Shown here: in pieces, positions 5,478-46,132 of the stretch | Position numbering within the stretch: the first letter of the stretch is position 1 | Layout of the letters: the number at the start of each line of letters is the position of its first letter | NCBI GenBank assembly: GCA_964570285.1 | Contig: CAZMXP010000010.1 | Location: 10,512 to 74,511, forward strand | Length of the DNA: 64,000 bases | Source: an uncultured Planctomycetaceae bacterium | GTDB taxonomy: Bacteria; Planctomycetota; PLA2 | Direction of reading: 5' to 3' | Program-made: the position numbers and the translations under genes | The notes under the pieces: generated by a model | Databases searched by the model: none | What the model saw: only the letters and a program-made list of their open reading frames with translations | What the model was told of the DNA's origin: nothing

Positions 5478-5480
5478 ACG

Positions 5481-6668: not shown

Positions 6669-6736
6669 CCGCGGCGCGCGTCGGGGCACGCTGCATGCCG
6701 CGCCCCTGTCCCGCTTGGCGCAAAGGCGTCGCCCGC

Positions 6737-9370: not shown

Positions 9371-9529
9371 CAGATCTCTCCTGATCACCTCGCACCCCCC
9401 GGCAGCGCCGTCCGGCCACGCTGACCCGTCCCGGAACACGCCCCCCCGGGGGCCATAGCATACGGGTTCGCCACGGTCTCCGCAGGCCCCCCCATCTCGG
9501 CGCGAGCCCCCGCTACAATCGCCGACCTC

Positions 9530-10603: not shown

Positions 10604-11373
10604 CGTTCGCCCTCGTGGCACTCGGGGCGGCGCTTGCCGCGGCCTTAGGCGCTCTCGCGCTCCTTGAGCGATCCCGCTCCCGGTATGCGCGCGGCCTCGC
10701 GCGGGCGGCGGCGGACCTCGAGAGGCTTCAGACGGCGTTCGCCCGCTTCGCCCCGGCGGAGGTCGTCGAGCAGATCGCCGCGCGCGGGATCGCCCCCGAG
10801 GCGACGGAGCGGGAGGTGACGGTCCTCTTCGCGGACTTGAAGGGGTTCACGCCGCTTGCCGGCTCCCTCGGCCCCGAGAGCGTCGTCGATCTGCTGAACG
10901 GCTGGTTCCGCGAGATGAGCGCGGCGATCGTGGCGCACAACGGTCACGTGGCGAAGTTCCTCGGGGATGGCCTGATGGCGCTCTTCGGCGCGCTCGACCG
11001 GAACCCGTGGCAGGCGCGGGACGGGGTCGAGGCCGCGCTCGCGATGCGGGAGGCGCTTGCCCGCTACAATGAGGCGCTCCGGACGCGCGGCCTGCCGGCG
11101 CTCTCGTTCGGCGTCGGCCTCCACCGCGGCCCCGTCATCGCGGGCGTCATCGGCAGCGACGCGTGGATGGAGTACACCGTCGTCGGCGACACGGTCAATG
11201 TCGCGTCGCGGATCCAGGGGCTCACGCGGGTGCACGACACGGACATCCTCGTCAGCGAGGAGGTGCGCCTGGCCCTCGGCGACCGGTACTCGCTCCGGGC
11301 ACTCCCCCCCGCGCCGGTGCGCGGCAAGGCCGAGGCGATTCGTACCTACGCCGTCGAGCGCGCGGGGGCATAG
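10597..11373 (+). CDS. Membrane-anchored class III adenylate/guanylate cyclase
   Basis: ATG 10597 (7-nt overlap with upstream gene); N-terminal TM helix MLTFALVALGAALAAALGALALL; cyclase core FADLKGFTPLAG...GDGLMALFGA...GLHRGPVIAGVIGS. Confidence 0.8.
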   Translation: MLTFALVALGAALAAALGALALLERSRSRYARGLARAAADLERLQTAFARFAPAEVVEQIAARGIAPEATEREVTVLFADLKGFTPLAGSLGPESVVDLLNGWFREMSAAIVAHNGHVAKFLGDGLMALFGALDRNPWQARDGVEAALAMREALARYNEALRTRGLPALSFGVGLHRGPVIAGVIGSDAWMEYTVVGDTVNVASRIQGLTRVHDTDILVSEEVRLALGDRYSLRALPPAPVRGKAEAIRTYAVERAGA

Positions 11374-12972: not shown

Positions 12973-14439
12973 TCAGCGCTCGATCCTGTAGTTGGGGGCC
13001 TCCTTGGTGATCTCGATGTCGTGCGGGTGGCTCTCCGCGACGCCGGCGCCGCTGACGCGCAGGAAGCGCGACTTCGTGCGCAGCTCCTCGATGCTGCGCG
13101 TGCCGCAATAGCCCATCCCCTGCCGCAGCCCGCCGACGAGCTGGTGCACGAGCTCGGGGAGCTTGCCCTTGTAGGGCACGCGTCCCTCGACGCCTTCCGG
13201 CACGAACTTCTCCGTCGCGCGGATCTCCTGCTGGCCGTACCGGTCCTTGCTGCCCCGCGACATCGCGCCGAGGCTGCCCATGCCGCGGTATGTCTTGAAG
13301 GTGCGCCCGCCGTAGAGGACGGTCTCGCCGGGGCTCTCCTCGGTGCCGGCGAAGAGCGAGCCGACCATCACCGAGTGCGCGCCCGCCGCCAGTGCCTTGA
13401 CGATGTCGCCGCTGAAGCGGATGCCGCCGTCGGCGATGACCGGCACGTCGCGACCCGCGAGCCCTTTCGCCGCCGCCGCGATCGCCGAGAGCTGCGGCAC
13501 GCCGATGCCGGCGATCACCCGCGTCGTGCAGATGGAGCCGGGCCCGATGCCGACCTTCACGGCGTCCGCGCCCGCGTCCGCGAGGTAGACCGCCCCCTCC
13601 GCCGTCGCGATGTTGCCCGCGATGACGTCCACCTCCGGGTGGGCCTGCTTCAGGTGGGCGACGATCGTCCCGACGTTCCTGCTGTGGCCGTGCGCGGTAT
13701 CCACCGCGAGCACGTCGACCCCCTGCTCGACCAGCGCCGCCGCCCGCTCCCGCGCGTCCCCGACCGCGCCGATCGCCGCGCCGACGCGCAGCCGCCCCTT
13801 CGTGTCGAGGTTGGCCTGCGGGAACTCGAGCAGCTTGTTGATGTCCTTGATCGTGATGAGCCCCTGCAGCCTCATCTCCTTGTCCACGAGCAGGAGCTTC
13901 TCGACCTTGCTGCGGTGCAGGATGTCCTTCGCCTCCTCGAGCGTCGTGTCGATCGGCCCGGAGATCAGGTCGTCCCGCGTCATCACGTCCGCGATGCGGG
14001 CGTTGTCCTCGGTGCGGAAGCGCAGGTCGCGGCTCGTCAGGATGCCGACGACGCGCCCCTTCTCCAGGATCGGGATCCCGCTGATCTTGTTCTCCTCCAT
14101 CAGCCGCCGCGCGGTGCCCACCGACTCGTGGGGCGGCAGCGTGACCGGGTCGTAGATGATCCCGTTCACCGACCGCTTGACGAGATAGACCATCTTGACC
14201 TGCTGCTCGATCGAGAGGTTCTTGTGGATGAACCCGATGCCGCCCTGCTGGGCGAGCGAGATCGCGAGCGCCGACTCGGTGACGGTGTCCATCGCGGCGC
14301 TGGCGACCGGGATCCGCAGCCCGACCCGGCGGCTCAGCCGCGTCACGACATCCACGTCCGACCCGAGCACCTCGCTGTACCCGGGCAGCAGCAGCACGTC
14401 GTCGAACGTGATGCCCTCTCCTACGATGCGGTCCTGCAT
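12973..14439 (-). CDS. guaB: Inosine-5'-monophosphate dehydrogenase with CBS pair
   Basis: [24 protein letters not shown] start, catalytic loop [14 protein letters not shown] insert; ATG at revcomp 14437-14439. Confidence 0.9.
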
Positions 14440-14557
14440 GCGCACCTCTTCTCCCGGGGGGGCGGGAGGGGCCATCGCACGCTCTGCGGGGCGCTCTCCC
14501 ACGCCCGGACTTGAAGCCCGGCAGTGTACCCCGCTCCGGCGACCATCCCAAGGATGA

Positions 14558-14587
14558 GGGGGGGGCCGCGGGGGGGGGCGGCCCCCC
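14558..14587. repeat. G7-CCGC-G9-CGG-C7 homopolymer hairpin module directly 3' of the saccharopine-DH-like gene
   Basis: Read from sequence; same design as the modules at 28046-28170 and 45078-45116. Confidence 0.45.
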
Positions 14588-15672
14588 TACGTGGAACGCC
14601 GGTAGTACCGCCCGAAGGGCGTCGCCATGAAGGCGTCGTAGGAGACCTCCTCCATGCGGACGAAGCCGCGGGCCGGGAGTTGGCCGTCGAGCAGCAGGTG
14701 CAGCACGCCGCAGACGCCCGCCGCCGTCGAGACCTCGATGCCGGTGAAGAAGTGCGCGCCGATGCGCTGGCCGTCCACCTTGCGCCAGAAGGTCTTCTCG
14801 GTGTAGCGCCCGCCCGACGTGCCGAGCCCGCGCACCGAGACGATCACGAAGTCGTCGACCGTCGCGGGGATGCTGCGGACGAAGATCTTGACCAGCTCCT
14901 CCGGATGCTGGCCGAAGCGGAGGTCCTCGATCAGGAATCGGATCAGTTCCAGGTGGCCCGGGTAGCGGATCGTCTTGTAGTCGAGGTGGCGGATCCGGCC
15001 CTGGTAGGTGTGGCAGAGCGTGCCGACGCCGCCGGAGGTCGTGAACGCCTCGTAGGTGACGCCGTCGATGATGACGACCTCCTGCCCTTCGAGGGGCGGG
15101 ACCATCGTGACCTCGCCCTCCCGCAGCGCCTCGCAGGGGTGGAGGTACTCGTTGACGAGCCCCTCGGTGGACCAGGTGAGGTTGTACTTGAGGCGGTTGT
15201 TCGGCTGGTCGGGCAGCGCGCCGACGCGCAGCGTGAGGGTGTCGACCTCGTCGAACTGGTCGATGATGTGCACGCCGGCGAGCGTGACGAAGCCCGGCGC
15301 GACGCCGCACTGGGGGATGAACGCGGTCGAGGACTCCTCCGCGAGATCCTTGACGAACTGCGTCACCTTCACGTCCTCGGTCAGGTCGAGGTAGTGCACG
15401 CCCGCCTCCGCGGCCGCCTCGGCGATCTCCGGGTTGGCGGCGAAGGGTGCGGCGGAGACGACGGCACGGCGCCCGGCGAGGGCCTCGACGAGGGCCTCCT
15501 TGCCGTCGAGCGGCCTCTCCCACGCGCGCGCGTCGGGCACCTCGGCGGCGACCTTGCGCGCGTTCTCCGGCACGAGATCGCCGATGCCGATCTCGTAGCC
15601 CCCCGCGCCCCCCAGCATGTGCACGATGGTCCGGCCCACGCGCCCGGCACCGACGACGAAGACCTGCTTCAT
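14587..15672 (-). CDS. Saccharopine dehydrogenase family NAD(P)-binding oxidoreductase
   Basis: N-terminal Rossmann motif [17 protein letters not shown]; overall Sacchrp_dh-like organisation. Confidence 0.7.
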
Positions 15673-15716
15673 CCGGGGGATTCTCCCCCGGGTGCCGTCG
15701 GCCGGGAAGGAATTGG

Positions 15717-17399
15717 CTACCGCGCCGCCCGCACGCGCACCGGGTCGCTCTCCCCCCCGCTCAGGTCGAGCGCGCAGGTGACGGCGACGTTGCCATCGAG
15801 GTGCAGCATCACGTTCGTCCAGCCCCAGGTCGAGGCCGGCAGCGGCGCGCGGTAGTAGGCCTCGCGGGTGCTTACCTTGCGCGCCCGCTCGAACCGCACG
15901 CCGAGACCGCCCGGCAGGACCGCGGTGACTTCGCGCGGAAGGCTGCGGCCGTCCCCGCTGCGCAGCAGGCGGACGAGCACGCCCGTACGCGGCGCGGCCT
16001 CGAGGGTCGTGCGCGAGACGTAGTCGGGGATCGGCCGGTCGAGACCGACCTCGTAGCCCTCGGCCCGGAGGAGGACATGCGTCCAGAGCGGGAAGGGGAA
16101 CTCGATCTCGCCGTGCCGGTCGGTCGTCACGACGAGCGGGAGTTCGTCGCCGCGGCTCGCCGCGAGGCGGTCCCCGAAGGGCACGACCTCGAGGTCGACG
16201 CCGCGCAGCGGGTGCCCGTGGAGATCGACGATGCGCACGCGGGTGAGGGCGGCGCGGTGGGGCGCGACGGGCCCGAGGCCGGGCCGCTCGTCGCTCGTCA
16301 GCGCCTTCAGGAACTCGACCAGGTCGTCGACCTCGCCCTGCGTCAGGTCGAGGGGACGGATCGCGCGGTCGAGGTGCGCGTTGGGCGTGCCGCCGCGATC
16401 GTAGTAGCGCACGACCTCTTCGAGGGTCTCGAACGACCCGTCGTGCATGAAGGGCGGGCGCCGCGCGACGTTGCGCAGGCTCGGCGTCTTGAACTTGCCG
16501 AGGTCGGCCATCGCGAAGCTCTGGTTCCCGCGCCCCTCGTCGCCGGTGACCGACCGGCGCAGGCCGATCGTCACATGCTGGAGCGCCACCCCCGTGTTGT
16601 GGAAGTCGCCGTCGGAGAGCGCGGGCGGCCGCCCGTCGCCCGCGGTGCTGTGGCAGGCGGCGCAGTTCGCCTTCCCCTGGAAGAGGGCCAGCCCGCGCCG
16701 CGCCGCCTCCCCCATGGCGTCCGGCTCCCCGGCGAGGTAGCGGTCATAGGGGCTCGGCCCCGACTCGAGGCTCAGCAAGTAGGCCTCCATCGCATCGATG
16801 ACGCGGTCGTTGGTCACGCCCGCATCGCCGAACGCCATCCGGAACCCCACGTCGTAATGGCCGAGTTCGGACAAACGCTCGGCGACGGTCACGGTCGGCG
16901 GCGTCCCCGGCGTGAGCGGCTTCTGCGGCCCGTAGTAGGGCGGCGTCAGATCGGCCATGCGCTTCTCGAAGGTGGGGCGATCGACCTCGCCGCCCCGCCC
17001 GAGGGAGGCGGCCATGTGCTTTTCGAGCAACTCGCGCTGCTGCGTCACCGCCTCCGCCGGCGTCGCGACGCGTGCAACCAGCAACTGCCGCACGGTGTCG
17101 AACTCGCCGTCCCAGTGCATGCCCTTGCCGTCCGCGAGATCGAGCACCGGCTGGCTGTGGCGTCGCGACGGCCCGTTCTCGTCGACGCTGACGGTCCGCG
17201 GGTCGGAGAAGCCGTGCTCCGGGTTGTGGCAGGAGGCGCAGGAGGTGCGCCCGGTCTGGCTCACCGCCGGGTCGAGGAAGAGCCGCCTCCCCAGCTCGAT
17301 CCGTGCGCCTTCCCTGCCCGACGCAGGCGGCGCGGCCGCGATCGCGCCGCCGAGCAACACGCATCCGAAGACCCCGAGTAGCCAGTGACGAGCCGACAT
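15717..17399 (-). CDS. Di-haem cytochrome c peroxidase (CCP/MauG family) fused to a C-terminal ~190-aa CarbopepD_reg-like beta-sandwich domain
   Basis: Two CxxCH motifs ([22 protein letters not shown]), signal peptide; C-terminal extension [22 protein letters not shown]...[10 protein letters not shown] is not present in canonical ~340-aa CCPs. Confidence 0.8.
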
Positions 17400-17477: not shown

Positions 17478-17606
17478 CGTCGCCCGCTGCGCGGGCTATG
17501 GGCCCTAAAGGGCCCGAGGCGGTCGGCCGCTGCGCGGGCTATGGGCCCTAAAGGGCCCGAGGCGGTCGGCCGCTGCGCGGGCTATGGGCCCTGAAGGGCG
17601 CCGGAG
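17478..17606. repeat. Tandem repeat, 43-bp unit x3 (GGTCGGCCGCTGCGCGGGCTATGGGCCCTAAAGGGCCCGAGGC), each unit containing GGGCCC-TAAA-GGGCCC hairpin
   Basis: Three near-identical head-to-tail copies read from sequence; third copy has TGAA instead of TAAA. Confidence 0.85.
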
Positions 17607-17764
17607 CAGGTCACGCGCGCACGAAACGGACGCCCTCGCGTCCCTTTGAGGTCGTCATCCTCGGTCCAGAGCGTCGCCGCGTGGGCCCGCGCGGTTGCGA
17701 GGAGGATGCCGCGCGAGCTCGGCAGGGTGCAATGGCCGCCCAAGGTCACCGGGAACTGCGCGGT

Positions 17765-18172
17765 GCGGTGGATCACCGCCTTCGTCTTGAAGGAGGAGAT
17801 GAGGAACCCAGGAACTAAGGAACCGAGGAAGAGGCGGATTCGATTATCCGAGTACCGGGATGCTCCCCTTTGCTCTCATGGATTCCTCCCTTCCTGGGTT
17901 CCTCATCAAATCCGACACCCTCGTCCCTGATCGCTCGTACGCCATGCCCGCAGAGTCCTCGCCGCTGGCGCGGATCCCGACGAGTCAGTGGATTCGAGCG
18001 GGGGGAACGAAAACCACGGAGGCACGAAGACACGATGGGGCTTCCGCGACCCGGTGCGCTCCCCGCGCGCAGGCTCGTCGCTGCCCATTCTCCGTGCCTT
18101 CCTGCCTTCGTGGTCATTGTTCTGGATGACCGGTGCAGCGGCCTGCGCTGATTTGATTGCGGCGTCAAGCCG
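17765..18172 (+). repeat. Copy 1 of a ~400-bp lower-GC repetitive element with nested inverted repeats (GGAACCCAGGAA...TTCCTGGGTTCC; CACGAAG.CACGGAG...CTCCGTGCCTTCGTG); MITE or structured-RNA-like
   Basis: About 85% identical over ~380 bp to 45163-45530; partial homologs at 21023-21640 and 28262-28452 (inverted); intergenic. Confidence 0.75.
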
Positions 18173-18434
18173 CGCTGCGGCTCAACACGACCCGTCCCGA
18201 GGCGCCAGACTGTCGGCTCGGGCAGCCCTCCTCGGCCTCGGCCGCCGCGTATGGGGCCCGTCAGGACCGCTGAGCGATTCCTGTGCGAACGACTGCGAGT
18301 CCGCAGCGGGCGCCAAGACCGGCCCAGAGGAGCGATGAGGCCGAGGCGTAGGGCACCCGCCGCCCGCTCCCCCCGGGCGTGCGCGGAGGCGGCGGGGCCC
18401 TCCTAGCGGCCCCCGCCGCCTCCGACTTAACAAG

Positions 18435-19858: not shown

Positions 19859-21004
19859 ATGCGCGCCTACGGCTCCGCCGACGACCCCGCCCCCCCGGAG
19901 GGGCCGCTCGCCCCCGACCTGACCCGCTCGACCACCTTCCGCCACGCCACCGGCGAGCGGCTGAGGGCGGTCGGTACCGGCGAGGCCGCCGGCGAGTTCT
20001 ACCCGCGCTACGGCCACCCCAACGGGCGGGAGTTCGAGCGCGCCGTGGCGCGAATGGAGGGGGCCGCGGGGGCCGTCGCCTTCGCGTCGGGCATGGCGGC
20101 GCTGCACGCGGTGCTCTGCGGCCTCTGCAGCAGCGGCGAGACGGTGGCGGCGTCGCGCGACCTCTACGGCGGCACCGTCGCCGTGCTCGACAAGGACCTG
20201 CCGCGGTTCGGCATCGACGTGAAGCGGTTCGACCCGTTCCATCCGGTGGGGCTGCCGGTCGCGCCAAGGCTCATCGTCGTCGAGTCGCCGACCAACCCGC
20301 TCTGCCGCGTGCCCGACCTGCCGGCGCTGGCCGCGATCGCCCGGGCGACCGGCGCGATCCTCTGCGTCGACTCGACCTTCGCGCCGCCGCCGATCGGCCG
20401 CGCGCTGGCGCTCGGCGCCGACCTCGTCATGCACAGCGTGACGAAGTTCTTCGGCGGCCACAGCGACGTGCTCGGCGGCGTGATCGCGGGCCCCCACCGC
20501 CTGCTCGAGAAGATCGAGGGGTTCCGGCGCCGCACCGGCGGCATCCTGTCGCCCGACAGCGCATGGCTCGCGACGCGTTCGATGAAGACGCACGAACTGC
20601 GCGTGAGCCGCCAGCAGGAGAACGCGGGGCGCCTCGCGCGCTTCCTCGAGGGCCGCGTGCGCCGCGTCTGCTACCCCGGCCTCGCGAGCCACCCCGACCA
20701 CGAGATCGCCCGCCGCGACATGAACGGCTTCGGCACGATCGTCTCGTTCGAAGTCGACGGCGGCCTCGACGGCGCGCTGCGCGTCTACGACCGGTTCAGG
20801 CTGATCGCCCGCGCCGTCTCCCTCGGCGGCCTCGATTCGAAGGCTTCGCTGCCGCTGCACACGAGCCACGCCCCGGTCTCCGCCGAGGACCGCGCCCGCT
20901 CCGGCATCGCCGACGGCCTGATCCGGTTGAGCGTCGGCATCGAGGAGGCGGCGGAACTCGAGGCGGACCTGGCGCAGGCGCTCGGGGGCGATCGCGCTCC
21001 GTGA
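19859..21004 (+). CDS. PLP-dependent Cys/Met metabolism enzyme (cystathionine gamma-synthase / beta-lyase / methionine gamma-lyase family)
   Basis: Family fold with PLP-lysine context HSVTKFFGGHSDVLGGV. Confidence 0.8.
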   Translation: MRAYGSADDPAPPEGPLAPDLTRSTTFRHATGERLRAVGTGEAAGEFYPRYGHPNGREFERAVARMEGAAGAVAFASGMAALHAVLCGLCSSGETVAASRDLYGGTVAVLDKDLPRFGIDVKRFDPFHPVGLPVAPRLIVVESPTNPLCRVPDLPALAAIARATGAILCVDSTFAPPPIGRALALGADLVMHSVTKFFGGHSDVLGGVIAGPHRLLEKIEGFRRRTGGILSPDSAWLATRSMKTHELRVSRQQENAGRLARFLEGRVRRVCYPGLASHPDHEIARRDMNGFGTIVSFEVDGGLDGALRVYDRFRLIARAVSLGGLDSKASLPLHTSHAPVSAEDRARSGIADGLIRLSVGIEEAAELEADLAQALGGDRAP

Positions 21005-21022
21005 TGGCGCGCCGATAGGAAG

Positions 21023-21640
21023 AGCACAGAGGCGCAGCACGGCTTGACGCCGCAACCAAATCAGCGACGGCCGAAGGCCGCGCTGCGCCTAGTGAGGAGC
21101 TGCGGGATCCGGGTGACGCGCGCGGGGCAGAGGGCTGCGTGCGTTACTCCCCCGCCGCAGAGGATGGCTGCGAAGCGGCCACAGTGGCGCGGTTCGGGGC
21201 GCCGCACGAGGGCACCACCAGAATTTGCGCAGGGAGCGCGAAGTCTGCGGGTTAGTAGTACAGAGACGCAGAGGAGGAGTGAGGCCGCGACGGGACAGCG
21301 CGGGCCGTGGGCTGGCTGGTCTGCTCGGCGGGCGAGTGTTTCGGGCAGCGACGCCCGCGAACCCCAACTCGCCTCTGTACTAAGAACGCCTGGCTTCTGC
21401 GCCGCTTGGGCGAATTCATGCCCCGGGGATCTCCACGCCGCGAACGAGAACCACGAAGTCACGAAGACACGAAGGAGCCCCCGCGAGCCCGGACGCGAGC
21501 GGCGCCGCGGTCCGGCCTTTCACGTTCTCCGTGCCTTCGTGTCTTCGTGGTGATTGCTCGACATGACGCGTGCGGCGTCTTGCCGTCGTTTGGTTGCGGC
21601 GTGGGGGCCGCGCTGCGTCTCTGTGACTCTGTGCTACTCC
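21023..21640. repeat. Composite ~620-bp member of the repetitive element family; ~25-bp terminal inverted repeats (GGCTTGACGCCGCAACCAAATCAGCGACGG ... CCGTCGTTTGGTTGCGGCGTG), internal IRs (TTAGTAGTACAGAGACGCAGAGG / CCTCTGTACTAA), 3' half homologous to copy 1
   Basis: Read from sequence; segment 21425-21560 aligns to 17995-18140 (CACGAAG / CTCCGTGCCTTCGTG module). Confidence 0.65.
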
Positions 21641-21665
21641 TGCTCGCTTCGGTCGCCGCGGGAGG

Positions 21666-23330
21666 TCAGCGCCGCCAGTACACCCACCACCCGAGCATCA
21701 GGAACACGAGCCCGAGGGCGGCGGCGTGGACAGCCAGCGGGCGGTCGGGGATCGCAGGATCGCCGACGGCGGGCAGCGGGTCGCTCGGCGCGTTCGTCGA
21801 GGTCAGGTCGAGGTCGGGTGCGACCAGATTCACGGCCAGCGTCGCCTCGCCCAGCGTCCAGAACCCCGGCGGGCCGAGCAGGCGGTCGCCGACGCGCCAG
21901 CGTTGGCCGTCGGCACCCTCGGCGACGCCGGAGGTCGGGGAGGGTTCGCCGACCGCGTGGAACTCCGGCACCTCCGAGGCGATCGTCTCGGTCAGGTGCG
22001 CGATCGCGTTGCGCAGGAAGAGCGGGTAGGCGGGCGTCGCCGCGAAGACGGTGCGGTCGGGGTCGAAGCCGAGCGCGAGCCAGCCGGGGCCCTCGCAGGC
22101 GACAGGTCCGCAGGCGGCGCGCGCGAGGGGGCTTCCACCCATGAGGGGGCGCGCGCGCAGCAGCGGCACCGCCGCGGGATCGAATCCCCGCCACAGGGGG
22201 TGGTCGCGCCGCACGTCCAGCAGCACCGACGAGTCCGACCACTCCCCCACCTTGAAGGGGAGGGCGCCGGGAGGGGGAGCGAGGTAGATCGCGCGCGTCC
22301 CGGTCAGCGCGCTGGCCGGGGCGCAGCGGTCGAAGATCAGCAGGTCCGCCTCGACTGCGCCCGCATGGTCGGGGGTCGTCCGCTCCAGCGGGCCGAGCAG
22401 CGAACGCGTCTCCTCCAGGGCCACCAGCGCGGCCGTGAGGAACGGGGAGGGCTCTCCGGCGGCGATGACGACCGCGCGCGGGATGCGCCGCTCAGGCAAG
22501 ATCAGGTAGACCGCGTCGTCGGGCGAGAAGCCGTCCGGGGCACCCTGGCGCCTCAGCGCGACGCGTCCGCTGGCGGGCAGCGGCACGTCGACCGAGCCCT
22601 CGCCGACGAGGCCGCCCTCCAGCGTCACCGGTCCCTTCCCGCGCAGCCCGAGGCGCGCGATCTTGCCCCCGCCTTCGGCATCGGTCAGCACTTCGACCGA
22701 CGCGATGCCGGAGTTCTCGATGGGATCGGTCAGGGTCCTCAGGCGCAGGCCGTCGGGGCGCCCGGGCCGGAAGGTGCAGAGCACGACGTCGGCCTCGCGC
22801 AGCGTGCGCGCCCCCTCGCGCGCGAGATCAAGCGCCTCCGCTCGGTCCCCCGGCAGCCACGCGGGGCGGATCGCGCGCACGAACGCGAGCGCCTCCTCCC
22901 GGTCGCCGCCGCTCCACACCTGCGGGCCCTCGTCGGCGACGGCGATCAGCACAAAGCGCGTGCCCGGCGCGCGGCGCCGGATCTCCGCCTCGGCCAGCCC
23001 GCGAAGCCGGTCGAGGCGCCCGCCCGCCTGCGCCTCGAGGCCGCCGTCGACGACGAGCACGAGATCGCGGATGCTCTCCCTCGCCCCCGGCACGAACGGC
23101 GATCCGGCCGCGAGCGCCGCCGCGAGACAGGCGAGCAGCGCGAGCAGCAGGTCAAGGAGCCTCGTCAGCGCACCGCCGAAGCCCGCGCCGCGGCGGCTTC
23201 CCGAGACCGCCCACAGCGGAAGGAACGGCACGACGACGCGCCGCGCGCGGCGCCGGATCAGGTAGGCCGCGAGCACGAGAAGCGCGCCCAGGCCGAGCCA
23301 GAGACCCGCCGGGAAGGCGAACCGGATCAT
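21666..23330 (-). CDS. BatA-like aerotolerance-regulator N-terminal-domain membrane protein (vWA-like), C-terminal TM anchor
   Basis: MIRFAFPAGLWLGLGALLVLAAYLIRRRARRVVVPFLPLW matches the BatA N-terminal domain; ATG at 23330 overlaps the DUF58 stop (ATGA); alternative ATG at 23342. Confidence 0.6.
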   Translation of the reverse strand: MIRFAFPAGLWLGLGALLVLAAYLIRRRARRVVVPFLPLWAVSGSRRGAGFGGALTRLLDLLLALLACLAAALAAGSPFVPGARESIRDLVLVVDGGLEAQAGGRLDRLRGLAEAEIRRRAPGTRFVLIAVADEGPQVWSGGDREEALAFVRAIRPAWLPGDRAEALDLAREGARTLREADVVLCTFRPGRPDGLRLRTLTDPIENSGIASVEVLTDAEGGGKIARLGLRGKGPVTLEGGLVGEGSVDVPLPASGRVALRRQGAPDGFSPDDAVYLILPERRIPRAVVIAAGEPSPFLTAALVALEETRSLLGPLERTTPDHAGAVEADLLIFDRCAPASALTGTRAIYLAPPPGALPFKVGEWSDSSVLLDVRRDHPLWRGFDPAAVPLLRARPLMGGSPLARAACGPVACEGPGWLALGFDPDRTVFAATPAYPLFLRNAIAHLTETIASEVPEFHAVGEPSPTSGVAEGADGQRWRVGDRLLGPPGFWTLGEATLAVNLVAPDLDLTSTNAPSDPLPAVGDPAIPDRPLAVHAAALGLVFLMLGWWVYWRR

Positions 23331-24211
23331 CGCGACAGCCATCCGCGGGCGATCGCCGCGCGCACGATCTCGAAGAGGGGCTGATCCGCACGCACGCGCA
23401 GGAAGCCGATGCCGGTGCGTCGGCAGAAGGCCGAGAGCCCCGTCACGCGCGCCTCGCGCGCCCGATGGTAGGCGTCGACGCTCTCGCGCGTGATCTCGAG
23501 GCGCAGCGTCTCGCCGGTCTCGGAGTCGACAAGGCGGGTGCGCCCGGGGGGCGGCGGCATCAGCGCCTGCGGGTCCTCGATCAGCAGCGCGCGCACGCGG
23601 TAGCGGTGCCCTTGCAGGCGCGAGAGTGCCGCCGCGGCCCCCTTCGGATCGAAGAAGTCGCTGACGACGAAGGCGACCCCGCCGCGCGCGTGGCGCGGCA
23701 ACCGGCCCTTCAGCGCCGCGAGAAGATCCGTCGGGCCCGAGACCTCGCTGTCGATCGCCTCGAGCAGGTCGGCGCTCCGCCCCTCGGGGCCCATGGCCCG
23801 CGCCGCGGGCGTCGGGCCCCCCCCCGGGCCCCCCCCCGGGCCCCCCCCCATTCGCAGATGCTGCACGCGCTCGCGCTGCGAGAGCGCGATGGTGCCCAGC
23901 GCGGCGCAGACCTTCGCCGCCGTCTCCGCCGCGCGGCCGCGCATGCTCGCGGTCGAGTCCTGCACGAGCAGCAGGTCGATCGCCTCCTCGGCGTCGAACT
24001 CCTTCACGGCGAGCGTGTCCATGCGCGCATAGACATGCCAGTCCACCCGCCGCAGCGCGTCGCCGGGGTGGTAGGCGCGGTGCTCGCGAAAGCCGCTGCC
24101 CGGCCCGGCGCGGCGCATCGCGCGCTCGCCCTGCAACTGGCCGCGGCGCACCTTCGCGGCGAGCAGTTCCAACTGGCGCACCTGCGCCATCTCGCGCGCG
24201 GTGAGGATCAT
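23327..24211 (-). CDS. DUF58 family protein (MoxR-associated vWA-like)
   Basis: REMAQVRQLELLAAKVRRG...YHPGDALRRVDWHVYARMD...VKEFDAEE is the DUF58 signature; contains (GGGP)x3 encoded by a C/G homopolymer tract. Confidence 0.7.
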   Translation of the reverse strand: MILTAREMAQVRQLELLAAKVRRGQLQGERAMRRAGPGSGFREHRAYHPGDALRRVDWHVYARMDTLAVKEFDAEEAIDLLLVQDSTASMRGRAAETAAKVCAALGTIALSQRERVQHLRMGGGPGGGPGGGPTPAARAMGPEGRSADLLEAIDSEVSGPTDLLAALKGRLPRHARGGVAFVVSDFFDPKGAAAALSRLQGHRYRVRALLIEDPQALMPPPPGRTRLVDSETGETLRLEITRESVDAYHRAREARVTGLSAFCRRTGIGFLRVRADQPLFEIVRAAIARGWLSR

Positions 24212-27531: not shown

Positions 27532-28091
27532 GCGAGCGCGCGGAGTGGGAGCGGCAGATCGAGGAGGCGCGGCCGCGCCTCGTGCTCTGGGTGGCGGCGC
27601 GCCTCGGCACGAGGCTGCGGGCAAGGATCGAAGCGGAGGACATCGTGCAGGAGATCCTGCTGAAGGCGTTCGAGGGGCTCGCGACCTTCGAGCCGAAGCA
27701 CGAGCACTCGCTGCTCGCGTGGCTCTTCACGATCGCCGAGCACCGGATCGCCGACCTCGCCGACCACTTCGGCGCCGCCAAGCGCGACGGGGAACGCGAG
27801 CGCGAGATCCACTCGCGCATCGCCGCGTCGCAGACAAGCCCCAGCATGCGCGCGAGCCGCGAGGAGCAGAAGGAACTGCTCTGGCTCGCGATGTCGGCGC
27901 TCTCCGAGCGCCACCGCGAGATCCTCCGCCTGCGCCGCTTCGAGATGCTGTCGAACGAGGAAGCGGGCGAGCGGATGGGCATCACCGCCAAGAACGCATC
28001 CGTCCTCTACGTCCGCGCCGTCGAGGCGATGCGCAAGGTGATGACGGGGGGGCTCGGGGGGGCGGAGCGCAGCGCAGTCCCCCCCGAATGA
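27528..28091 (+). CDS. ECF (sigma-70 family group IV) RNA polymerase sigma factor; last 15 codons and stop supplied by the G7/C7 repeat module
   Basis: Region 2 (DIVQEILLKAFEGLATF) and region 4 (LSERHREILRLRRFEMLSNEEAGERMGITAKNASVLYVRA); GTG start overlapping lpxB stop. Confidence 0.8.
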   Translation: MSERAEWERQIEEARPRLVLWVAARLGTRLRARIEAEDIVQEILLKAFEGLATFEPKHEHSLLAWLFTIAEHRIADLADHFGAAKRDGEREREIHSRIAASQTSPSMRASREEQKELLWLAMSALSERHREILRLRRFEMLSNEEAGERMGITAKNASVLYVRAVEAMRKVMTGGLGGAERSAVPPE

Positions 28092-28170
28092 TCCAGGGGA
28101 TCGGGGGGGCTTGCCCCCCATAGCGCGCAGCGCGACGGGGGGCGGAGCGGAGTCCCCCCTGAGTAATCCG
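28046..28170. repeat. Two tandem copies of G7-loop-C7 module (GGGGGGGC.CGGGGGGGCGGAG[CGCAGCGCAG]TCCCCCCCGA.T.ATCC)
   Basis: Read from sequence; a third near-identical copy sits at 45078-45116 at the 3' end of an unrelated gene. Confidence 0.6.
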
Positions 28171-28261
28171 AAGGGCGAGCGGTAGGCCTTGCGCCAGTTG
28201 CGCTGACATGGAGGGTTGGCAGTACAAGCCTCGGGCGCTGCGCGCCCTCGCTATGGCCTGC

Positions 28262-28452
28262 GTCAGAACCGGATCGCGGGTAGCTGATTTGCTGAGGAAC
28301 CCAGGAAGAGAGGAGTCCATGAGTGCAGGTTGGAGCATCTCGGGACTCAGATGGATCGATTGCGCCTCCACCTTGACTCCTGGGTTCCTAGATTCCTGGG
28401 TTCCTTCTTCCAACCTCACGACGAAGGCTGTGGTCCGCCGCACCGCGCAGTC
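28262..28452 (-). repeat. Partial, inverted copy of the repetitive element family (5' GGAACCCAGGAA...TTCCTGGGTTCC module)
   Basis: Reverse complement of 28380-28450 aligns to 45161-45235 (GCGGTGGACCACCGCCTTCGTCTTG...GGAAGAAGGAACCCAGGAACTTAGGAACC). Confidence 0.6.
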
Positions 28453-28638
28453 CTCGGTGCAGTTGCATCCTGAGAAGGTTGCGCGGCAAGCTCCTGGTGC
28501 GCCCCGGAACGCACTTCGCGCCTGAATCCCGAACAACCCAGGAGAGCGGCACCCGGTGGTGGCACAGAGAGCCCGTGGCGGCCTCGTACGCGGCACGAGG
28601 GGGTCTTTAGGAAGCTCGTTCCCGGTGCGCGGCTGCGG

Positions 28639-29391
28639 TTGGACGTCCTCGGCGGCAGTAGAATCTGTCGCGTGGGGCGTTGTGTCGTGCTCCTCGTGGC
28701 GTTGGGGGCTGCCGTGGGCGGGTGCGGCTTCGGCCGCATCGCCGATGCGGTCTGCAGCGCCGCCGCGTTCGGCTTCACGACCGGCTGCGACACCGGATCC
28801 ACGTCGCTGGTCGCGGGCGCGCCGCGCGTCGATGTCGTCGATGCGGAGACAGGGGACCGATCCGCGCTGTCGAGCCCGAGCCTGGGCGGCGGCGCCGACT
28901 TCGCGGTCGGAGCGATCGCCTGGGACGGCGGCGACGGCTGCGTCGTCATGGTCGCGGAGGAGAGGGACGCGCTTTACGCGGTCGACGGCGGGAGCGGCGC
29001 GCGCAGGGTGATCTCCGACCTCGGTCGCGGACAGGGCCCGCCCTTCGACGCGATGCGCGGAGTGGCCGTCGATGCGTCCCGTCGGATGGCCTACGTGTCG
29101 GACGTGGGGCTCGACGCGTTGGTCGCCGTCGATCTCGCGACCGGCGATCGCGTGATCGTGGCCGGGCCCGGGACCGGGAGCGGCCCCTCCCTAGGGAACG
29201 TCCCCTTCTTCGTGCTCGGCTCCGACCTCGAGCACGCCTATCTGGTGGACTGGGACAGCGACCGACTGCTGCGCGTCGACCTCGCCACCGGCAATCGGAC
29301 CGTGCTCTCCTCGGAGGGTCTCGCGGGCCGCACCCCCTGGTCCATGGCGCTCTCTCCCAGCCGCAACCGTCTCTACGTCACGCGCTACTGA
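28639..29391 (+). CDS. Lipoprotein with beta-propeller (NHL/YVTN-like) repeats
   Basis: Lipobox VLLVALGAAVGGCG; repeated D-x-x-x-x-R-x-[LV]-x-V-D-L and AYVSDVGLDALVAVDLATG motifs. Confidence 0.55.
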   Translation: MDVLGGSRICRVGRCVVLLVALGAAVGGCGFGRIADAVCSAAAFGFTTGCDTGSTSLVAGAPRVDVVDAETGDRSALSSPSLGGGADFAVGAIAWDGGDGCVVMVAEERDALYAVDGGSGARRVISDLGRGQGPPFDAMRGVAVDASRRMAYVSDVGLDALVAVDLATGDRVIVAGPGTGSGPSLGNVPFFVLGSDLEHAYLVDWDSDRLLRVDLATGNRTVLSSEGLAGRTPWSMALSPSRNRLYVTRY

Positions 29392-29512
29392 GCGGCGACG
29401 CGCGGCGCGGCCCTCGGCTGTCGCCCGTCTGGTTGGCGCGTGCGGATCAGAGCGGAGCCAAAGCTCCGGCGGTCGAGGATAGACTGGGAAGACCCGCCTG
29501 CCCGTCGTCGAA

Positions 29513-31390
29513 GTGCACATGAAGGACGCACCTGCTCGACTCGCGATGCTCTGCGCGGTCCTGCTCGCCTGCTGCGGCGGGGCGCCAATTGCGGAGCTGC
29601 CCCTGGGGCAGTCCGGATCGGGCACCTACCGCCTCGCGGGGCGGGTGACGGACAGCGCGGGATGGCCCGTGGAGGGCGCCGAGGTATCCCTCGGCGAGAT
29701 GAGTGGCGACGTCAGGCGGGCGGAGCCGCGGTCGACGCGATGCGCCGACGATGGAACGTTCGAGTTCGTGGGGGTCACGATGGGCAACTGCCAGCTTGCG
29801 GTGCAAGCCGCTGGCTATGCCACGACCTGTCGCTCCGTGCCCTCCGGCGATGCGGACCTCGCGTTGACGCTATGGCGCCCGGCCTCCATATCCGGCGTGG
29901 TCGTGGACGCGGCGGGCCTTCCGACACGCGCCGAGGTGTCGCGCCTCTCGGACCGCGGCATGTGGGGAACACCCTCCGATGCGACCGACGAGTCCGGCGC
30001 ATTCCGGTATGACGGGCGTACGCCGGGGTCCTTCCACATCCGTGCACTCACGAAGAGCGGCGAGGAGGCCGATCTGCTGTTGCAACTCGCCGAGGGGGCC
30101 CAGCATCACGGCCTGCGCCTGCAAGTCGGCCCCCCGCGGCGATCATGGGTGCGGCTCCGGACCGTCGACCACGGAGGCAAGGGCGTGGCTGCGGAGGAGT
30201 TGTCCTTCACCTGGTCCGACGGGCGCCCGCGCATCGAGCCCGTGGGACAGGAGGTGCTGGCCGTCTACGATCTGCCGCCCGGAAGCGAGGTCACGCTGCG
30301 GGTGCAGAGGGGCGACGAGGCCGCGGCCGATCTCCGCGCGAAGACCGCATCGTCACCCGACAGCGCTCCCGCGGAGTTGACTCTCCCCCAGATGGTCCCC
30401 GTCCGTTTCGAGTCCGAGCCGCACGTAGACCGCCTCGGCGTGGGCGTCTGGCGCGGGGACTGGGAGATCGAGTTCGGCAGGACGCCACAGCGGCTGAGTC
30501 CAGCTTGCAGCTACGACGTGCGGTTCGAGGCGCGCGGCTATCTGCCGCACATCGAGTTCGACTGGCGACCGTCGCCGGAGGGCTCGGTGCTCAGGGTCCC
30601 GCTGAAGCCCGCGGCGACCGTGACCGGCACGGTCGTGGACCTCGACGGCAGGCCGCTCCCGAGTGCCACGGTCAAGGTCGGCGGTGTCGAATACTCCACC
30701 CCGGTCAGCGACGACGGGACCTTCAGCCTCGACGCTCTCGAACCCGGGGAGCAGGTGATCTGCGCGGATGTCGCGTGGACGCGCGTGGCCGCCACGCGCG
30801 TGCGCGCGGTTGCAGGAGTGGCCACAGACATCGGCAACCTGGTCGCCCAACGGCCTCGCCGGGTCGCAGGCCGCATTCGCGACGAATCCGGCCGCCCGAT
30901 CGGCGGCGCCCAACTCACCTTCGTGACGCTGCTGCGGGGCGGGTACTTCCTCTCAGACTCCGCCGACCAGTCCGAGACCTACTCGCACCACGACGGCCGG
31001 TTCGCCTTCGAGGTGCCCGGCGTCGCCGGCACCCTGATCGCCCACAAGCAGGGTTTTGGGACGACTCCTGTCGCGTGGCCCGAGGGCGAACCGGTGGGCC
31101 TCGAGGTCGTGTTGCCGCGCCCCGCGCTGCTGCGAGTCTCCGCGCTGCCCGAGCCCGAGTGGAACGACACCGGCTGGACCTGCTCGATCCGCTGGCCGGA
31201 CGGGACCGTGTGGGACATCGACGAGTTCCTCCCCTGCGACGTGGAGGTAGCCCCGGGTGCAATCGAAGTCCTGGGCCACTTCCAGCCCTACCGCATCGCG
31301 CCCTACTTCCGGTCCGACCTCGGCGGCACGAGGACGCGCAGCATCCTCGCTGTCGCCGGCGAGACCTTCCGCGTCGAGTTCGAGCGATAG
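29513..31390 (+). CDS. Lipoprotein with CarbopepD_reg-like repeats
   Basis: Lipobox AVLLACCGG; repeats RVTDSAGWPVEGAEVSL, GVVVDAAGLPTRAEV, GTVVDLDGRPLPSATVKV, GRIRDESGRPIGGAQLTF. Confidence 0.65.
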   Translation: MHMKDAPARLAMLCAVLLACCGGAPIAELPLGQSGSGTYRLAGRVTDSAGWPVEGAEVSLGEMSGDVRRAEPRSTRCADDGTFEFVGVTMGNCQLAVQAAGYATTCRSVPSGDADLALTLWRPASISGVVVDAAGLPTRAEVSRLSDRGMWGTPSDATDESGAFRYDGRTPGSFHIRALTKSGEEADLLLQLAEGAQHHGLRLQVGPPRRSWVRLRTVDHGGKGVAAEELSFTWSDGRPRIEPVGQEVLAVYDLPPGSEVTLRVQRGDEAAADLRAKTASSPDSAPAELTLPQMVPVRFESEPHVDRLGVGVWRGDWEIEFGRTPQRLSPACSYDVRFEARGYLPHIEFDWRPSPEGSVLRVPLKPAATVTGTVVDLDGRPLPSATVKVGGVEYSTPVSDDGTFSLDALEPGEQVICADVAWTRVAATRVRAVAGVATDIGNLVAQRPRRVAGRIRDESGRPIGGAQLTFVTLLRGGYFLSDSADQSETYSHHDGRFAFEVPGVAGTLIAHKQGFGTTPVAWPEGEPVGLEVVLPRPALLRVSALPEPEWNDTGWTCSIRWPDGTVWDIDEFLPCDVEVAPGAIEVLGHFQPYRIAPYFRSDLGGTRTRSILAVAGETFRVEFER

Positions 31391-31440
31391 TCTCCCCCTG
31401 TAGTCCCGGGCGCGGGTTTCCGCTATCAACATGGAGCGCG

Positions 31441-33462: not shown

Positions 33463-33508
33463 GGGTGGAATTTTCCCCAAGAGCGGTACTAACGAGCCTG
33501 GCTCCGCC
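33444..33508. repeat. 65-bp direct repeat copy 1 (contains the kinase stop codon and a duplicated copy of the CPBP gene 3' end)
   Basis: 64/65 identical to 34180-34244. Confidence 0.85.
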
Positions 33509-33513
33509 TGTGC

Positions 33514-34053: not shown

Positions 34054-34179
34054 CGGCGATTGTAGCCCATGCCCATTTGACGGGAGTGGGTGTCACGCGC
34101 CAATCGCGCCAGGAATAGCGCGAGAGGAGGAGGGAGGGGCTCAGGCCAGACTCAAGCGGCGCGGGAGCGGCAGTCTGTA

Positions 34180-34244
34180 CGGCGATGGCGAGCGGTGAGG
34201 GTGGAATATTCCCCAAGAGCGGTACTAACGAGCCTGGCTCCGCC
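34180..34244. repeat. 65-bp direct repeat copy 2 (contains the authentic 3' end and stop of the CPBP protease gene and a duplicated kinase 3' end)
   Basis: See 33444-33508. Confidence 0.85.
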
Positions 34245-45113: not shown

Positions 45114-45116
45114 TCG
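45078..45116. repeat. G7-C-C-G7-CGAAG-TC7-GAGTAATC module (third copy)
   Basis: Near-identical to 28133-28170. Confidence 0.6.
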
Positions 45117-45162
45117 ATGGCCCGGGGGGGCGTTCAGGGTGCGATGGCGCGCCGAAGGCCAC

Positions 45163-45530: not shown

Positions 45531-45599
45531 GGACCCCTGGGCCAAGCCTCGTAACCGTGGCGCACGGGCGAGGCACGCCGGGCAGGACCGGGAGCCGGC

Positions 45600-46103: not shown

Positions 46104-46132
46104 GTGTCACCTGCCATCGCATCCATCGGCTT

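Follow-up and report, generated by a model that had tools for sequence, protein, structure and literature searches.

A composite intergenic region of an uncultured planctomycete as a possible mosaic of modular hairpin-forming repeats

The 661-bp spacer at positions 21005–21665 of the 64-kb window (our term for the whole stretch of DNA analysed) stands, in our estimate, about an even chance of being a mosaic cluster of modular hairpin-forming intergenic repeats of an uncultured Planctomycetota lineage, as opposed to a single transposon bounded by terminal inverted repeats (TIRs). The earlier note on this DNA had described 21023–21640 as a composite member of a repeat family (hereafter copy 2) bounded by TIRs of ~25 bp, and had likened it to MITEs or foldback elements. 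Judged from sequence, the 620 bp divide at ~21262, with a D-C unit on the minus strand to the left and a hairpin-X-B-C' unit on the plus strand to the right (Table 1), and we prefer two units to one because each half has its own relatives elsewhere. The two members, a 5'-truncated D-C (−) and hairpin H-X-B-C' (+), would thus lie head-to-head, so that the 3' module C common to both sits at the two outer ends in inverted orientation and imitates a TIR. Copy-and-paste of segments is the probable way in which the modules spread, driven by recombination, template switching at palindromes or a putative trans-acting enzyme, and not TIR-directed cut-and-paste of the 620-bp unit; the arms would lengthen and shorten by whole 8-nt units. 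For annotators, the case is a caution that a TIR-bounded block may consist of two elements placed back-to-back.

Table 1 Features of the spacer, its flanking genes and the other family copies in the window
Feature	Position	Strand	Description
Family copy 1	17697–18183	+	preA-A-X-B-C; inside a 1064-bp spacer
Cys/Met-metabolism PLP-dependent enzyme (flanking gene)	19859–21004	+	PF01053; stop codon 21002–21004, 26 nt before module C
Whole spacer	21005–21665		661 bp; nested or serial inverted repeats almost throughout; no Pfam match for any ORF inside
Outer arm, left	21017–21037	+	AGGAAGAGCACAGAGGCGCAG; one CACAGAG unit; partner is 21613–21641
Module C, left copy (left 'TIR' of the earlier note)	21031–21089	-	~60-nt hairpin with G+C closing stem, inner stem and U-rich stretch UGAUUUGGUU
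Left end sequence	21041–21070		GGCTTGACGCCGCAACCAAATCAGCGACGG
Module D	21090–21262	-	structured; forms a 230-nt unit with C
Inner hairpin H	21252–21383	+	5' arm TTAGTAGTACAGAGACGCAGAGG (21252–21274), 3' arm CCTCTGTACTAA (21372–21383); both arms of the CAC-N-R-AG unit type
X-like spacer	21386–21449	+	alignable in part with the spacer of copies 1 and 4 (...GAACGAGAACCAC)
Module B hairpin	21450–21551	+	5' arm three CACGAAG+N units (21450–21477); 3' arm CTCCGTG CCTTCGTG TCTTCGTGG (21527–21551)
Module C', right diverged copy (right 'TIR' of the earlier note)	21563–21626	+	nhmmer E = 7.7e-12; fold z = −2.2; terminator-like pattern
Right end sequence	21583–21603		CCGTCGTTTGGTTGCGGCGTG
Outer arm, right	21613–21641	+	CTGCGTCTCTGTGACTCTGTGCTACTCCT; two CTCTGTG units, one more than in the left arm
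Inner repeat	21615–21638		GCGTCTCTGTGACTCTGTGCTACT
BatA N-terminal domain protein, first gene of the BatA/DUF58 cluster	21666–23342	-	PF07584, E = 8.6e-5, below Pfam's cut-off; stop codon ~40 nt from C'
Family copy 3	28213–28573	-	preA-A-E; kept at the orthologous site of a relative
Family copy 4	45133–45526	+	preA-A-X-B, without C; 86% identical to copy 1 over 359 nt

Terminal repeats and modules of the spacer

Every sequence feature that the earlier note had listed within 21023–21640 was found at the position it gave, and the block does lie between the PLP-enzyme gene (+) and the BatA-like operon (−), which converge on the spacer. The GC content of the spacer (0.67–0.69) is lower than that of the flanking genes (0.73–0.76), and its predicted fold is very stable on both strands, with minimum free energies of −372 kcal/mol (z = −9.1 vs shuffles) for the plus strand and −335 kcal/mol (z = −5.9) for the minus strand. 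Apart from one chance-level match, the seven ORFs overlapping copies 1 and 2 produced no Pfam match at E <= 0.1; a 64-aa ORF (17582–17776) considered as the C-terminus of a PIN domain had no Pfam match and was dismissed. Searches of the spacer against Rfam 15 gave no family at gathering scores and just chance-level miRNA-like matches (E 3–8) at E <= 10, tRNA and tmRNA scans found nothing, blastn detected no phage or plasmid similarity for either the 661 bp or D-C, and the B arm had no exact match in IMG/VR.

The inverted repeats at the two ends are real. Positions 21021–21081 pair in inverted orientation with 21572–21630 (50 of 55 aligned columns match, and a 4-nt TCAG indel is among the additional gaps), and local alignment of the first 100 nt with the reverse complement of the last 100 nt yielded a score of 50, which none of 500 dinucleotide shuffles reached (18.7 ± 3.0, maximum 28). 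By eye, the similarity extends outward to 21017 and 21641, where the indel amounts to exactly one 8-nt unit (CACAGAGT). The same terminal sequence closes copy 1, as had been proposed (exact pattern match at 18150–18172, 0 expected by chance); the additional inner inverted repeats were likewise recovered (Table 1), and the CACGAAG / CTCCGTGCCTTCGTG hairpin, with its arms at 21450–21477 and 21527–21551, is common to 18005–18122 and 45403–45526.

The nature of these ends is another matter. On sequence evidence, the 'TIR' of copy 2 is module C, a self-contained ~60-nt hairpin, and not an end specific to copy 2, because C folds on its own and also occurs singly elsewhere. The left C has a G+C closing stem of 13–14 bp, a fold of −45.2 kcal/mol (z = −4.9), an nhmmer E-value of 1.5e-20 and a terminator-like pattern on the minus strand, and is 93% identical to the copies in two other loci, L040 and L037. 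At three of the four loci that hold C, the module is single, namely at the end of copy 1 (18126–18188), at the end of the differently composed L037, and alone behind a transposase gene in L040, 20 nt after the stop codon. The transposase fragment preceding C there (L040/L104) was assigned to the ISAzo13 family (NF033519) with E = 0.011 over just 22 aa, and the contig ends inside the gene: the 52-kb contig stops within the transposase gene and the Logan contig begins within C, so that both assemblies break at this point, as assemblies do at repeats. A weak C-like unit, 7 nt beyond the stop at 29391, is conserved in the closest relative too. Of six metagenome matches to the C pattern, four were discarded as chance matches inside a gene read as valyl-tRNA-synthetase.

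The homology of the two ends of copy 2 exceeds C by ~20 nt (TCTGTG..CT..TCCT) that are absent from other C copies, and these shared nucleotides would also fit a local inverted duplication or, likewise, a true two-ended element.

Both halves of copy 2 have relatives in other combinations. The D-C unit (21033–21262) is 94.3% identical to positions 9293–9522 of L037, a related metagenome contig in which it follows A-E, and the consensus fold of D-C contains one G:C to C:G double change. On the other side, the right 190 nt (B+C') are colinear with the tail of copy 1 (73% identity over 180 nt), module B being 77% identical to B of copy 4 and 75% to B of copy 1. The segment between (21263–21442), including the H loop, matched nothing elsewhere, and the loop is unique to this locus. 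Within the 64-kb window, to which the search of the source genome was confined, and in the related contigs, the observed orders are preA-A-X-B-C, preA-A-X-B, preA-A-E, preA-A-E-D-C, D-C and H-X-B-C', that is, an ordered layout of preA, hairpin A, either X and hairpin B or E and D, and hairpin C. In preA, a conserved TTGCCG-N16-TGC(A/G)AT was noticed by eye ~45 nt upstream of hairpin A. When A, B and D-C were tested for covariation, single double changes only were recovered, the sequences being too few and too similar.

Comparison with relatives and mobility of the family

The closest relative, contig k141_1088467 (PLP-enzyme identity 89%), carries none of copies 1, 2 and 4, the sites of which coincide with synteny breakpoints between the two lineages. 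At the copy 1 site, the relative has a 147-bp spacer vs 1064 bp here, at the copy 2 site it has three other genes, and the 6.5-kb segment holding copy 4 (44671–51202) is missing altogether. A 66% relative has a different neighbour again at the copy 2 site, 10 nt past the stop codon; this genome and a 63% relative, used as outgroups, carry still other neighbours, so the three-gene difference is not polarised by them. The comparison with a genome lacking the insertion that the earlier note had proposed thus yielded no clean empty site. Copy 3 is retained in k141_1088467 at the orthologous site with 90% identity and one G:C to A:T double change in stem A; since the block around it is 93–98% identical between both lineages over several kb, this figure is not evidence of constraint. 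As far as can be judged from these comparisons, the data support a family that is lineage-specific and was mobile or duplicative at some point, because the closest relative lacks copy 2 and two of the three other copies. With three of its four loci at synteny breaks, the family marks rearrangement hot spots.

The coincidence of three loci with synteny breaks, the origin of the sequence from a MAG contig, and the many inverted matches of 38–54 nt at 70–76% identity that arise by chance in the window could also be taken to indicate an assembly chimera in the metagenomic contig, or palindromes that arose by chance in DNA of 70% GC. We regard this as highly improbable: both sides of each break are syntenic with one relative contig, a few kb apart, which fits indels and not chimeras, the TIR score lies far above those of the shuffles, and the modules are found again in assemblies made independently (ENA, JGI and Logan).

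A genuine non-autonomous transposon, MITE or foldback, is a more serious candidate, although on balance an unlikely one. It would move the 620 bp as a whole, with a transposase acting in trans that recognises either the inverted C units or the CACAGAG/CACGAAG arrays. The significant TIRs, the lack of a transposase gene inside, the very stable fold, the absence of copy 2 from the closest relative and the lineage-specific position of three of the four family loci in 64 kb at rearrangement points are all as expected for such an element, as are the position of C 20 nt beyond the ISAzo13-family transposase stop, where both assemblies break, and the end homology that goes ~20 nt past C. However, no direct repeat of 2–10 nt that could be a target-site duplication flanks the block (...GCGCGCCGAT / AGGAAGAGCACAGAG ... 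CTCTGTGCTACTCCT / GCTCGCTTCGG, with slashes at the borders), and neither the 64-kb window nor ~120 kb of related contigs nor the JGI metagenome scan yielded a second two-ended copy. The end unit is found singly and the two halves apart in other combinations, the two ends of copy 2 share just 79% identity, as against 93% between the left end and copies in another genome, and copy 3 has stayed at its orthologous site. Furthermore, bacterial MITEs are generally under 200 bp and reach up to about 400 bp (PMC3184786), so that copy 2, at ~620 bp, exceeds their usual size. What stands of the earlier proposal is real TIRs, a modular interior and a lack of coding capacity; the single TIR-bounded unit is not supported.

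Copy 2 resembles bacterial MITEs such as Correia, ERIC, RUP and Nezha in its TIRs, the lack of a transposase gene, the long stable fold, the intergenic position and the presence/absence pattern between relatives, but differs in that it lacks a target-site duplication and, in the sequences searched, a second two-ended copy, its end unit is also solitary, its halves occur separately elsewhere and its length is ~620 bp. Its arms of short tandem units recall foldback elements. The foldback (FB) elements of Drosophila have inverted arms of short tandem units, the number of which differs between the arms; they are eukaryotic, with kilobase-long arms, units of 10–31 bp and a transposase in some copies. 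Copy 2 shares with them the unequal unit number, its right outer arm having one 8-nt unit more, a likeness that implies no descent.

Transcription, termination and the 8-nt units

On the preferred reading, a mosaic of two back-to-back members, the cluster, if it acts at all, might form a bidirectional structured barrier where it lies directly behind the stop codons of the converging genes, serving termination, 3'-end protection of both mRNAs, or insulation. In its own orientation, C combines a G+C hairpin with a U-rich stretch downstream of it. The two C units point outward, and the converging genes accordingly run into C in antisense, which places the U-rich stretch opposite to where a classical intrinsic terminator has it; nor does a simple terminator account for the outer stem of C, 12–14 bp of perfect complementarity. 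Copies 1 and 3 lie antisense to the genes on either side, and would therefore need transcription of their own; a DNA-level element or an independent transcript fits this better than a 3'-UTR element.

The members might accordingly be non-coding RNA genes, giving structured transcripts of 250–600 nt from a putative promoter in preA (or at ~21262–21290 in copy 2) and ending at the terminator-like C, in which case the region would hold two divergent RNA genes. The C hairpin with its U-rich tail is in sense at the 3' end of copy 1, L037, D-C and B-C'; D-C is 94% identical across lineages whose orthologous genes share 79–89% DNA identity, and has one double compensatory change; the antisense position of copies 1 and 3, the motif conserved in preA and the retention of copy 3 at 90% identity would be in keeping with this as well. 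Against such genes stand the lack of any Rfam family even at E <= 10, the lack of a sigma-70-type promoter in the scan, sequences too few for covariation, the unusually similar block in which copy 3 lies, and modules that are shuffled and truncated in the fashion of selfish repeats. Nor do the window's own stems have a strand asymmetry (12 G.U vs 18 A.C), so RNA-level selection is not demonstrated by them. We consider RNA genes quite unlikely.

The hairpin arms consist of tandem 8-nt units, each the 7-mer CACGRAG plus one free base N. The same arms form hairpins in at least seven phyla (Planctomycetota, Acidobacteriota, Chloroflexota, Bacteroidota, Gemmatimonadota, Nitrospirota and Pseudomonadota), one-armed arrays occur in several phyla, and many of the cross-phylum matches lie 9–60 nt behind stop codons. 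In 16 hairpins with three units each, unit positions 2, 4, 7 and 8 are nearly invariant (46–47 of 48), the spacer base pairs in 24 of 48 cases, and position 5 is mismatched in 14 of 48 with no compensation, a lack that is partly built in because the search pattern fixed the 3' arms. Two indications of RNA in these hairpins were rejected: strand polarity, since the arms of [X][loop][rcX] follow one another in the same way whichever strand is read, and a 17:9 excess of G.U over A.C, which is predicted by the search pattern (two CTTC, one CTCC). Arrays of AGGAAC units in viral contigs are plain tandem repeats with no partner arm and are unrelated.

The octamer of the module B 3' arm, CCTTCGTG, is repeated ~11 times, one-armed, directly outside a T-DNA right-border-like sequence (TGACAGGATATAT) of pRi1724, in the position that overdrive and the 'T-DNA transfer stimulator sequence' occupy. 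The latter, an element of Ri plasmids, was reportedly described by Hansen et al. 1992, from which we infer that the pRi1724 array may be the transfer stimulator. Next to a nick site on a conjugative plasmid, that array is one-armed, whereas the arrays of the window are chromosomal, inverted pairs of 2–3 units, and no border-like sequence was found near them.

Such arrays could be DNA-level sites for a protein, the tandem 8-nt units being candidate iteron-like sites of a small DNA-binding protein and the hairpin potential a by-product. Ribbon-helix-helix proteins, for example, bind contiguous boxes of 7–8 bp. The near-invariance of positions 2, 4, 7 and 8, the pairing of only half of the spacer bases and the uncompensated mismatches at position 5 are consistent with binding sites, as are the one-armed arrays in several phyla and beside the pRi1724 border-like sequence. 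We nevertheless judge this improbable, given that the 3' arms were set by the search pattern, none of the loci is linked to a candidate binding protein, many matches follow stop codons at 9–60 nt as simple 3' hairpins do, and modules C and D have no 8-nt periodicity.

A broader proposal, which we put forward tentatively and consider unlikely rather than likely, is that the 8-nt-unit hairpins (CAC-N-R-AG plus a free base, direct and then inverted, forming 7-bp helices split by single mismatches) are an undescribed, widespread class of elements that a conserved protein recognises or a conserved mechanism makes, with the 620-bp region a nest of three of them (outer arms, H and B) and the other modules inserted into and around them. 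If a mechanism lies behind the recurrence of the unit in different phyla, for instance a protein-binding array or palindromes that extend themselves, the unit would count as a general feature of the intergenic DNA of bacteria, and a new one; as a family of one uncultured Planctomycetota lineage, the repeats are of modest interest. The literature searched held no relevant context for the octamer strings, and on STRR and octamer repeats general reviews only. STRR sequences of cyanobacteria are intergenic arrays of 7-nt units, the function of which is not known; by description, the octamer arrays found here differ from them in unit length, sequence and phyla.

Likeness to known intergenic repeats

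By analogy, the family may be comparable in kind to the pneumococcal BOX/SPRITE repeats or the enterobacterial BIMEs. Like BOX of Streptococcus pneumoniae, which is built as boxA-boxB(n)-boxC and spans 67–637 bp, it is modular, ordered, stably folded and intergenic, with modules variably present. The likeness to BOX and SPRITE extends to the position of C at 26, ~40 and 20 nt from stop codons (7 nt for the C-like unit) and to the hairpin with a U-rich stretch, from which termination is predicted only. The two differ in that there is no sequence relationship, Planctomycetota being another phylum, the arms here are of 8-nt tandem units, and each C unit points away from the gene behind which it lies. 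The family could also be a source of terminator-like parts in a phylum where hardly any regulatory signals have been characterised.

REP/BIME elements, which cluster in alternating orientation, lie preferentially between convergent genes and have a link to recombination (PMC3184786), and REPs, BIMEs and REPINs have been associated with recombination and with targets of IS elements (PMC3184786, PMC2817692, PMC3733652). Module C resembles them as a G+C-rich imperfect palindrome present here in both orientations between convergent genes, but it measures ~60 nt vs 20–40 nt for REPs, and the two C units are ~520 nt apart vs under 100 nt in REPINs. REPs are present in over 100 copies per genome and have an associated RAYT transposase gene; no RAYT gene was seen in the 64-kb window. 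REPs are defined by an unpaired GTAG or CGTC tag at one end of the palindrome (PMC3733652), and no such tag adjoins C; GTAG adjoins only two arms, GTAGTACAGAG at 21256 (+) and GTAGCACAGAG on the minus strand at the right end.

Architecture of copy 2

Copy 2 of the repeat family fills a non-coding, 661-bp spacer that runs from the stop codon of a PLP-enzyme gene to that of a BatA-like gene. The earlier note, too, had placed it between the PLP-enzyme gene and the BatA-like operon. Inverted repeats make up nearly all of this spacer. The inverted ends described in that note are likewise real: when 21021-21081 is locally aligned with 21572-21630, 50 of the 55 aligned columns match, the gaps include a 4-nt indel, and the alignment score of 50, compared with 18.7 +/- 3.0 in dinucleotide shuffles, was reached by none of the 500 shuffles. 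By eye, the end pairing reaches 21017 and 21641, and the indel there is exactly one 8-nt unit. Folding of the spacer gives z-scores of -9.1 (plus strand) and -5.9 (minus strand).

The modules of the family were delimited by repeat searches and blastn within the window, plus related contigs. Copy 2 divides at about 21262 into a left part, D-C, and a right part in the order hairpin H, X-like spacer, hairpin B and C' (the diverged right C). The right part matches the tail of copy 1 colinearly (73% over 180 nt). Judged by sequence comparison, copy 2 is two family members set head-to-head with their common 3' module C outward, and it is this arrangement that gives rise to the apparent terminal inverted repeats.

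Coordinates of the repeat family, the neighbours of copy 2 and the G-run/C-run hairpins
Feature	Coordinates	Strand	Content	Same site in nearest relative
Copy 1	17697-18183	+	preA-A-X-B-C	spacer 147 bp vs 1064 bp in the window
Copy 2, left neighbour	19859-21004	+	Cys/Met-metabolism PLP enzyme gene	
Copy 2, spacer	21005-21665			no module sequence; three different genes instead (TPR, unknown, VCPO/PAP2-like)
Copy 2, left part	21033-21262	-	D-C; 94.3% identity to L037	
Copy 2, hairpin H	21252-21383	+	start of right part	
Copy 2, hairpin B	21450-21551	+	after X-like spacer	
Copy 2, module C'	21563-21626	+	diverged; end of right part	
Copy 2, right neighbour	21666-23342	-	BatA-N-terminal-domain protein gene	
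Copy 3	28573-28213	-	preA-A-E	copy kept, orthologous, 90% identity; stem A differs by one double change, G:C to A:T
Copy 4	45133-45526	+	preA-A-X-B; 359 nt at 86% identity to copy 1	whole 44671-51202 segment missing
L037 (contig, metagenome holding the closest relative)	9873-9293	-	preA-A-E-D-C	
G-run/C-run hairpins	28045-28160, 45076-45130, 23813-23849, 47721-47760, 14555-14587, 1226-1245, 40297-40317			

No ORF of the copy 2 region matched Pfam, neither gathering scores nor a cut-off of E <= 10 gave an Rfam match, tRNA and tmRNA scans found nothing, and none of the phage and plasmid records showed similarity. G.U pairs were considered as a sign of strand-specific RNA-level selection and dropped; the order of hairpin arms is identical on both strands. 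Because the G.U excess in the cross-phylum hairpins is that predicted from the search pattern, and the window stems hold 12 G.U against 18 A.C, this measure speaks neither for nor against an RNA-level role.

A 43-bp unit (GTCGGCCGCTGCGCGGGCTATGGGCCCTAAAGGGCCCGAGGCG) forms 2.8 tandem repeats at 17479-17599, adjoining copy 1, where the nearest relative has no such array, and an inverted copy, 87% complementary, lies 6 kb off at 23779-23823. Runs of 7-10 G or C form G-run ... C-run hairpins in many spacers (e.g., GGGGGGGCGGAGCGCAGCGCAGTCCCCCCC), often beside the repeat family, and may represent a further family of short palindromes.

Module C and the 8-nt-unit arms

Module C is a separate unit, a 12-14-bp G+C stem enclosing a second small stem and the sole U-rich stretch (GAUUUGGUU). 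An nhmmer profile found five clear copies (three in the window, one each in the metagenome contigs L037 and L040; E 1e-20 to 8e-12) and a marginal pair, 29398-29441 and the orthologous site in the relative. A scan of JGI metagenomes with a C pattern gave two true matches, each a single copy; four further matches, inside a coding gene read as valS, were rejected as chance. A terminator-pattern scan flags 3/3 window copies in C's own orientation. In copy 2, the two converging genes have their stop codons 26 nt from C and about 40 nt from C', respectively, and since C points away from the interior of the element, the flanking genes read it antisense. In L040/L104 a solitary C follows an ISAzo13-family transposase fragment, 20 nt beyond its stop codon, and directly precedes genes for a predicted antitoxin (RHH-like by eye; no Pfam match) and a PIN-domain toxin. 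One assembly of the sample breaks off within the transposase gene at this locus (L104 1-900 = L040) and a second, independent assembly within C, consistent with gene and module each being repeated in that genome.

Tandem Repeats Finder and inspection of the sequence show that A, B, H and the outer stem have arms composed of tandem 8-nt units, AGGAAC+NN, CACGAAG+N and CACAGAG+N. When one genome per species was scanned with the 3' arm of B (20 specified bases; ~1-5 chance matches expected), 32 loci in at least seven phyla were returned. At about 17 of them three CAC-N-R-AG units lie upstream and form the partner arm, across loops of 5 to ~160 nt; several loci carry additional arrays. Among 16 hairpins, tabulated with the bias that the search fixed their 3' arms, unit positions 2, 4, 7 and 8 hardly vary, pairing of the spacer base is seen in half of the cases and position 5 is mismatched in 14/48. 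At loci with usable gene calls, the distance from hairpin to gene end is mostly 7-60 nt. Recurrence of the unit across phyla is the part that merits following up; that it reflects a shared mechanism is doubtful. Our literature search yielded no paper with the 8-nt-unit strings in a relevant context.

Hairpins with arms of at least three tandem CAC-N-R-AG+N units (e.g., L001 6317-6369, L009 5586-5643 and L021 2846-2985) occur in MAGs or genomes of Acidobacteriota, Planctomycetota, Chloroflexota, Bacteroidota, Gemmatimonadota, Nitrospirota and Pseudomonadota, and those of the 32 loci matched no Rfam family. One sits between nusG and rplK in an Acidobacteriota MAG (flanking ORFs read by eye).

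Ri plasmids were the sole plasmid matches. In pRi1724 (NC_002575.1, 2470-2600), CCTTCGTG occurs ~11 times, followed by two copies of CCCTCGTG, directly outside a T-DNA-border-like sequence (GGTTTGACAGGATATATTC) with RolB on the other side. We take this position to be that of overdrive or transfer-stimulator sequences, and an 8-bp-repeat "T-DNA transfer stimulator" has reportedly been described at the corresponding position of pRi8196.

Comparison with relatives and origin of copy 2

The window comes from an uncultured Planctomycetota MAG; its proteins have 100% identical records at NCBI alone, homologues at 61-66% identity were named Planctomycetota, and the nearest relative is contig k141_1088467 (L033 and L095; PLP enzyme 89%, WaaA 81%). 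Presence or absence of the family differs from this relative at three of the four loci, so that it was gained or lost there since the lineages split, and each of the three coincides with a synteny break; more distant relatives have different genes again after the PLP enzyme. For copy 2 there is no clean empty site. From presence and absence between relatives we infer that the family is probably mobile.

As a kind, hairpin-rich modular intergenic repeats are already known; what is new about this family is its sequence, its host phylum and its 8-nt-unit arms. We hold with about even confidence that copy 2 is a mosaic of a modular repeat family resembling BOX, SPRITE and BIME elements. Such a family would have spread through segmental copy-and-paste, and copy 2, lying behind two genes that converge on it, might act as a structured barrier, possibly in both directions, a function that we infer from position and shape only. 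The single MITE or foldback element proposed in the earlier note is unlikely: its inverted termini and modular interior stand, as do ~20 nt beyond C common to both ends and the IS adjoining C in L040, but the element splits into two separately related halves and its flanks show no target-site duplication. Two divergent ncRNA genes, each ending in C, would be in keeping with how C is oriented and with D-C being 94% conserved; we regard them as decidedly unlikely. Candidate protein-binding arrays of 8-nt units, acting at the DNA level, would agree with the statistics of the units and with the array in pRi1724, and seem very unlikely. Assembly artefact or chance can hardly be the explanation, given synteny on both sides at every break and recurrence of the modules in independent assemblies.

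Other differences from relatives were observed in the window. Block 28834-33505 shares 93.6-97.7% identity with 13474-16982 of the closest relative (L095), compared with 74-85% in neighbouring blocks, which suggests a recent exchange between the two lineages; within it, 1.15 kb (29480-30630) has no counterpart there. Compared with the closest relative, two segments are found in the window only: 6701-10762, about 4 kb, with a large ORF (6737-10621, minus strand) and a 357-aa ORF, and 44671-51202, 6.5 kb, encoding Zn-ribbon-like and CBS-domain-like proteins and a 1295-aa histidine-kinase/response-regulator hybrid (domains read by eye from translations). Direct repeats of 70 nt (33439-33508 and 34175-34244, 96% identical) bracket a 179-aa ORF (33514-34053, minus strand) that by eye looks like a Uma2-family endonuclease; L095 has a single 70-mer without the ORF, in another relative, L098, this place is occupied by a Uma2 gene, and 33439-34244 resembles the insertion of a small gene accompanied by a long duplication. 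Beside waaA, L098 (WaaA 89% identical) also encodes a 1245-aa protein (4825-8562), absent from the window, whose Pfam matches to Cas6 (weak), reverse transcriptase and Cas1 suggest a fusion.
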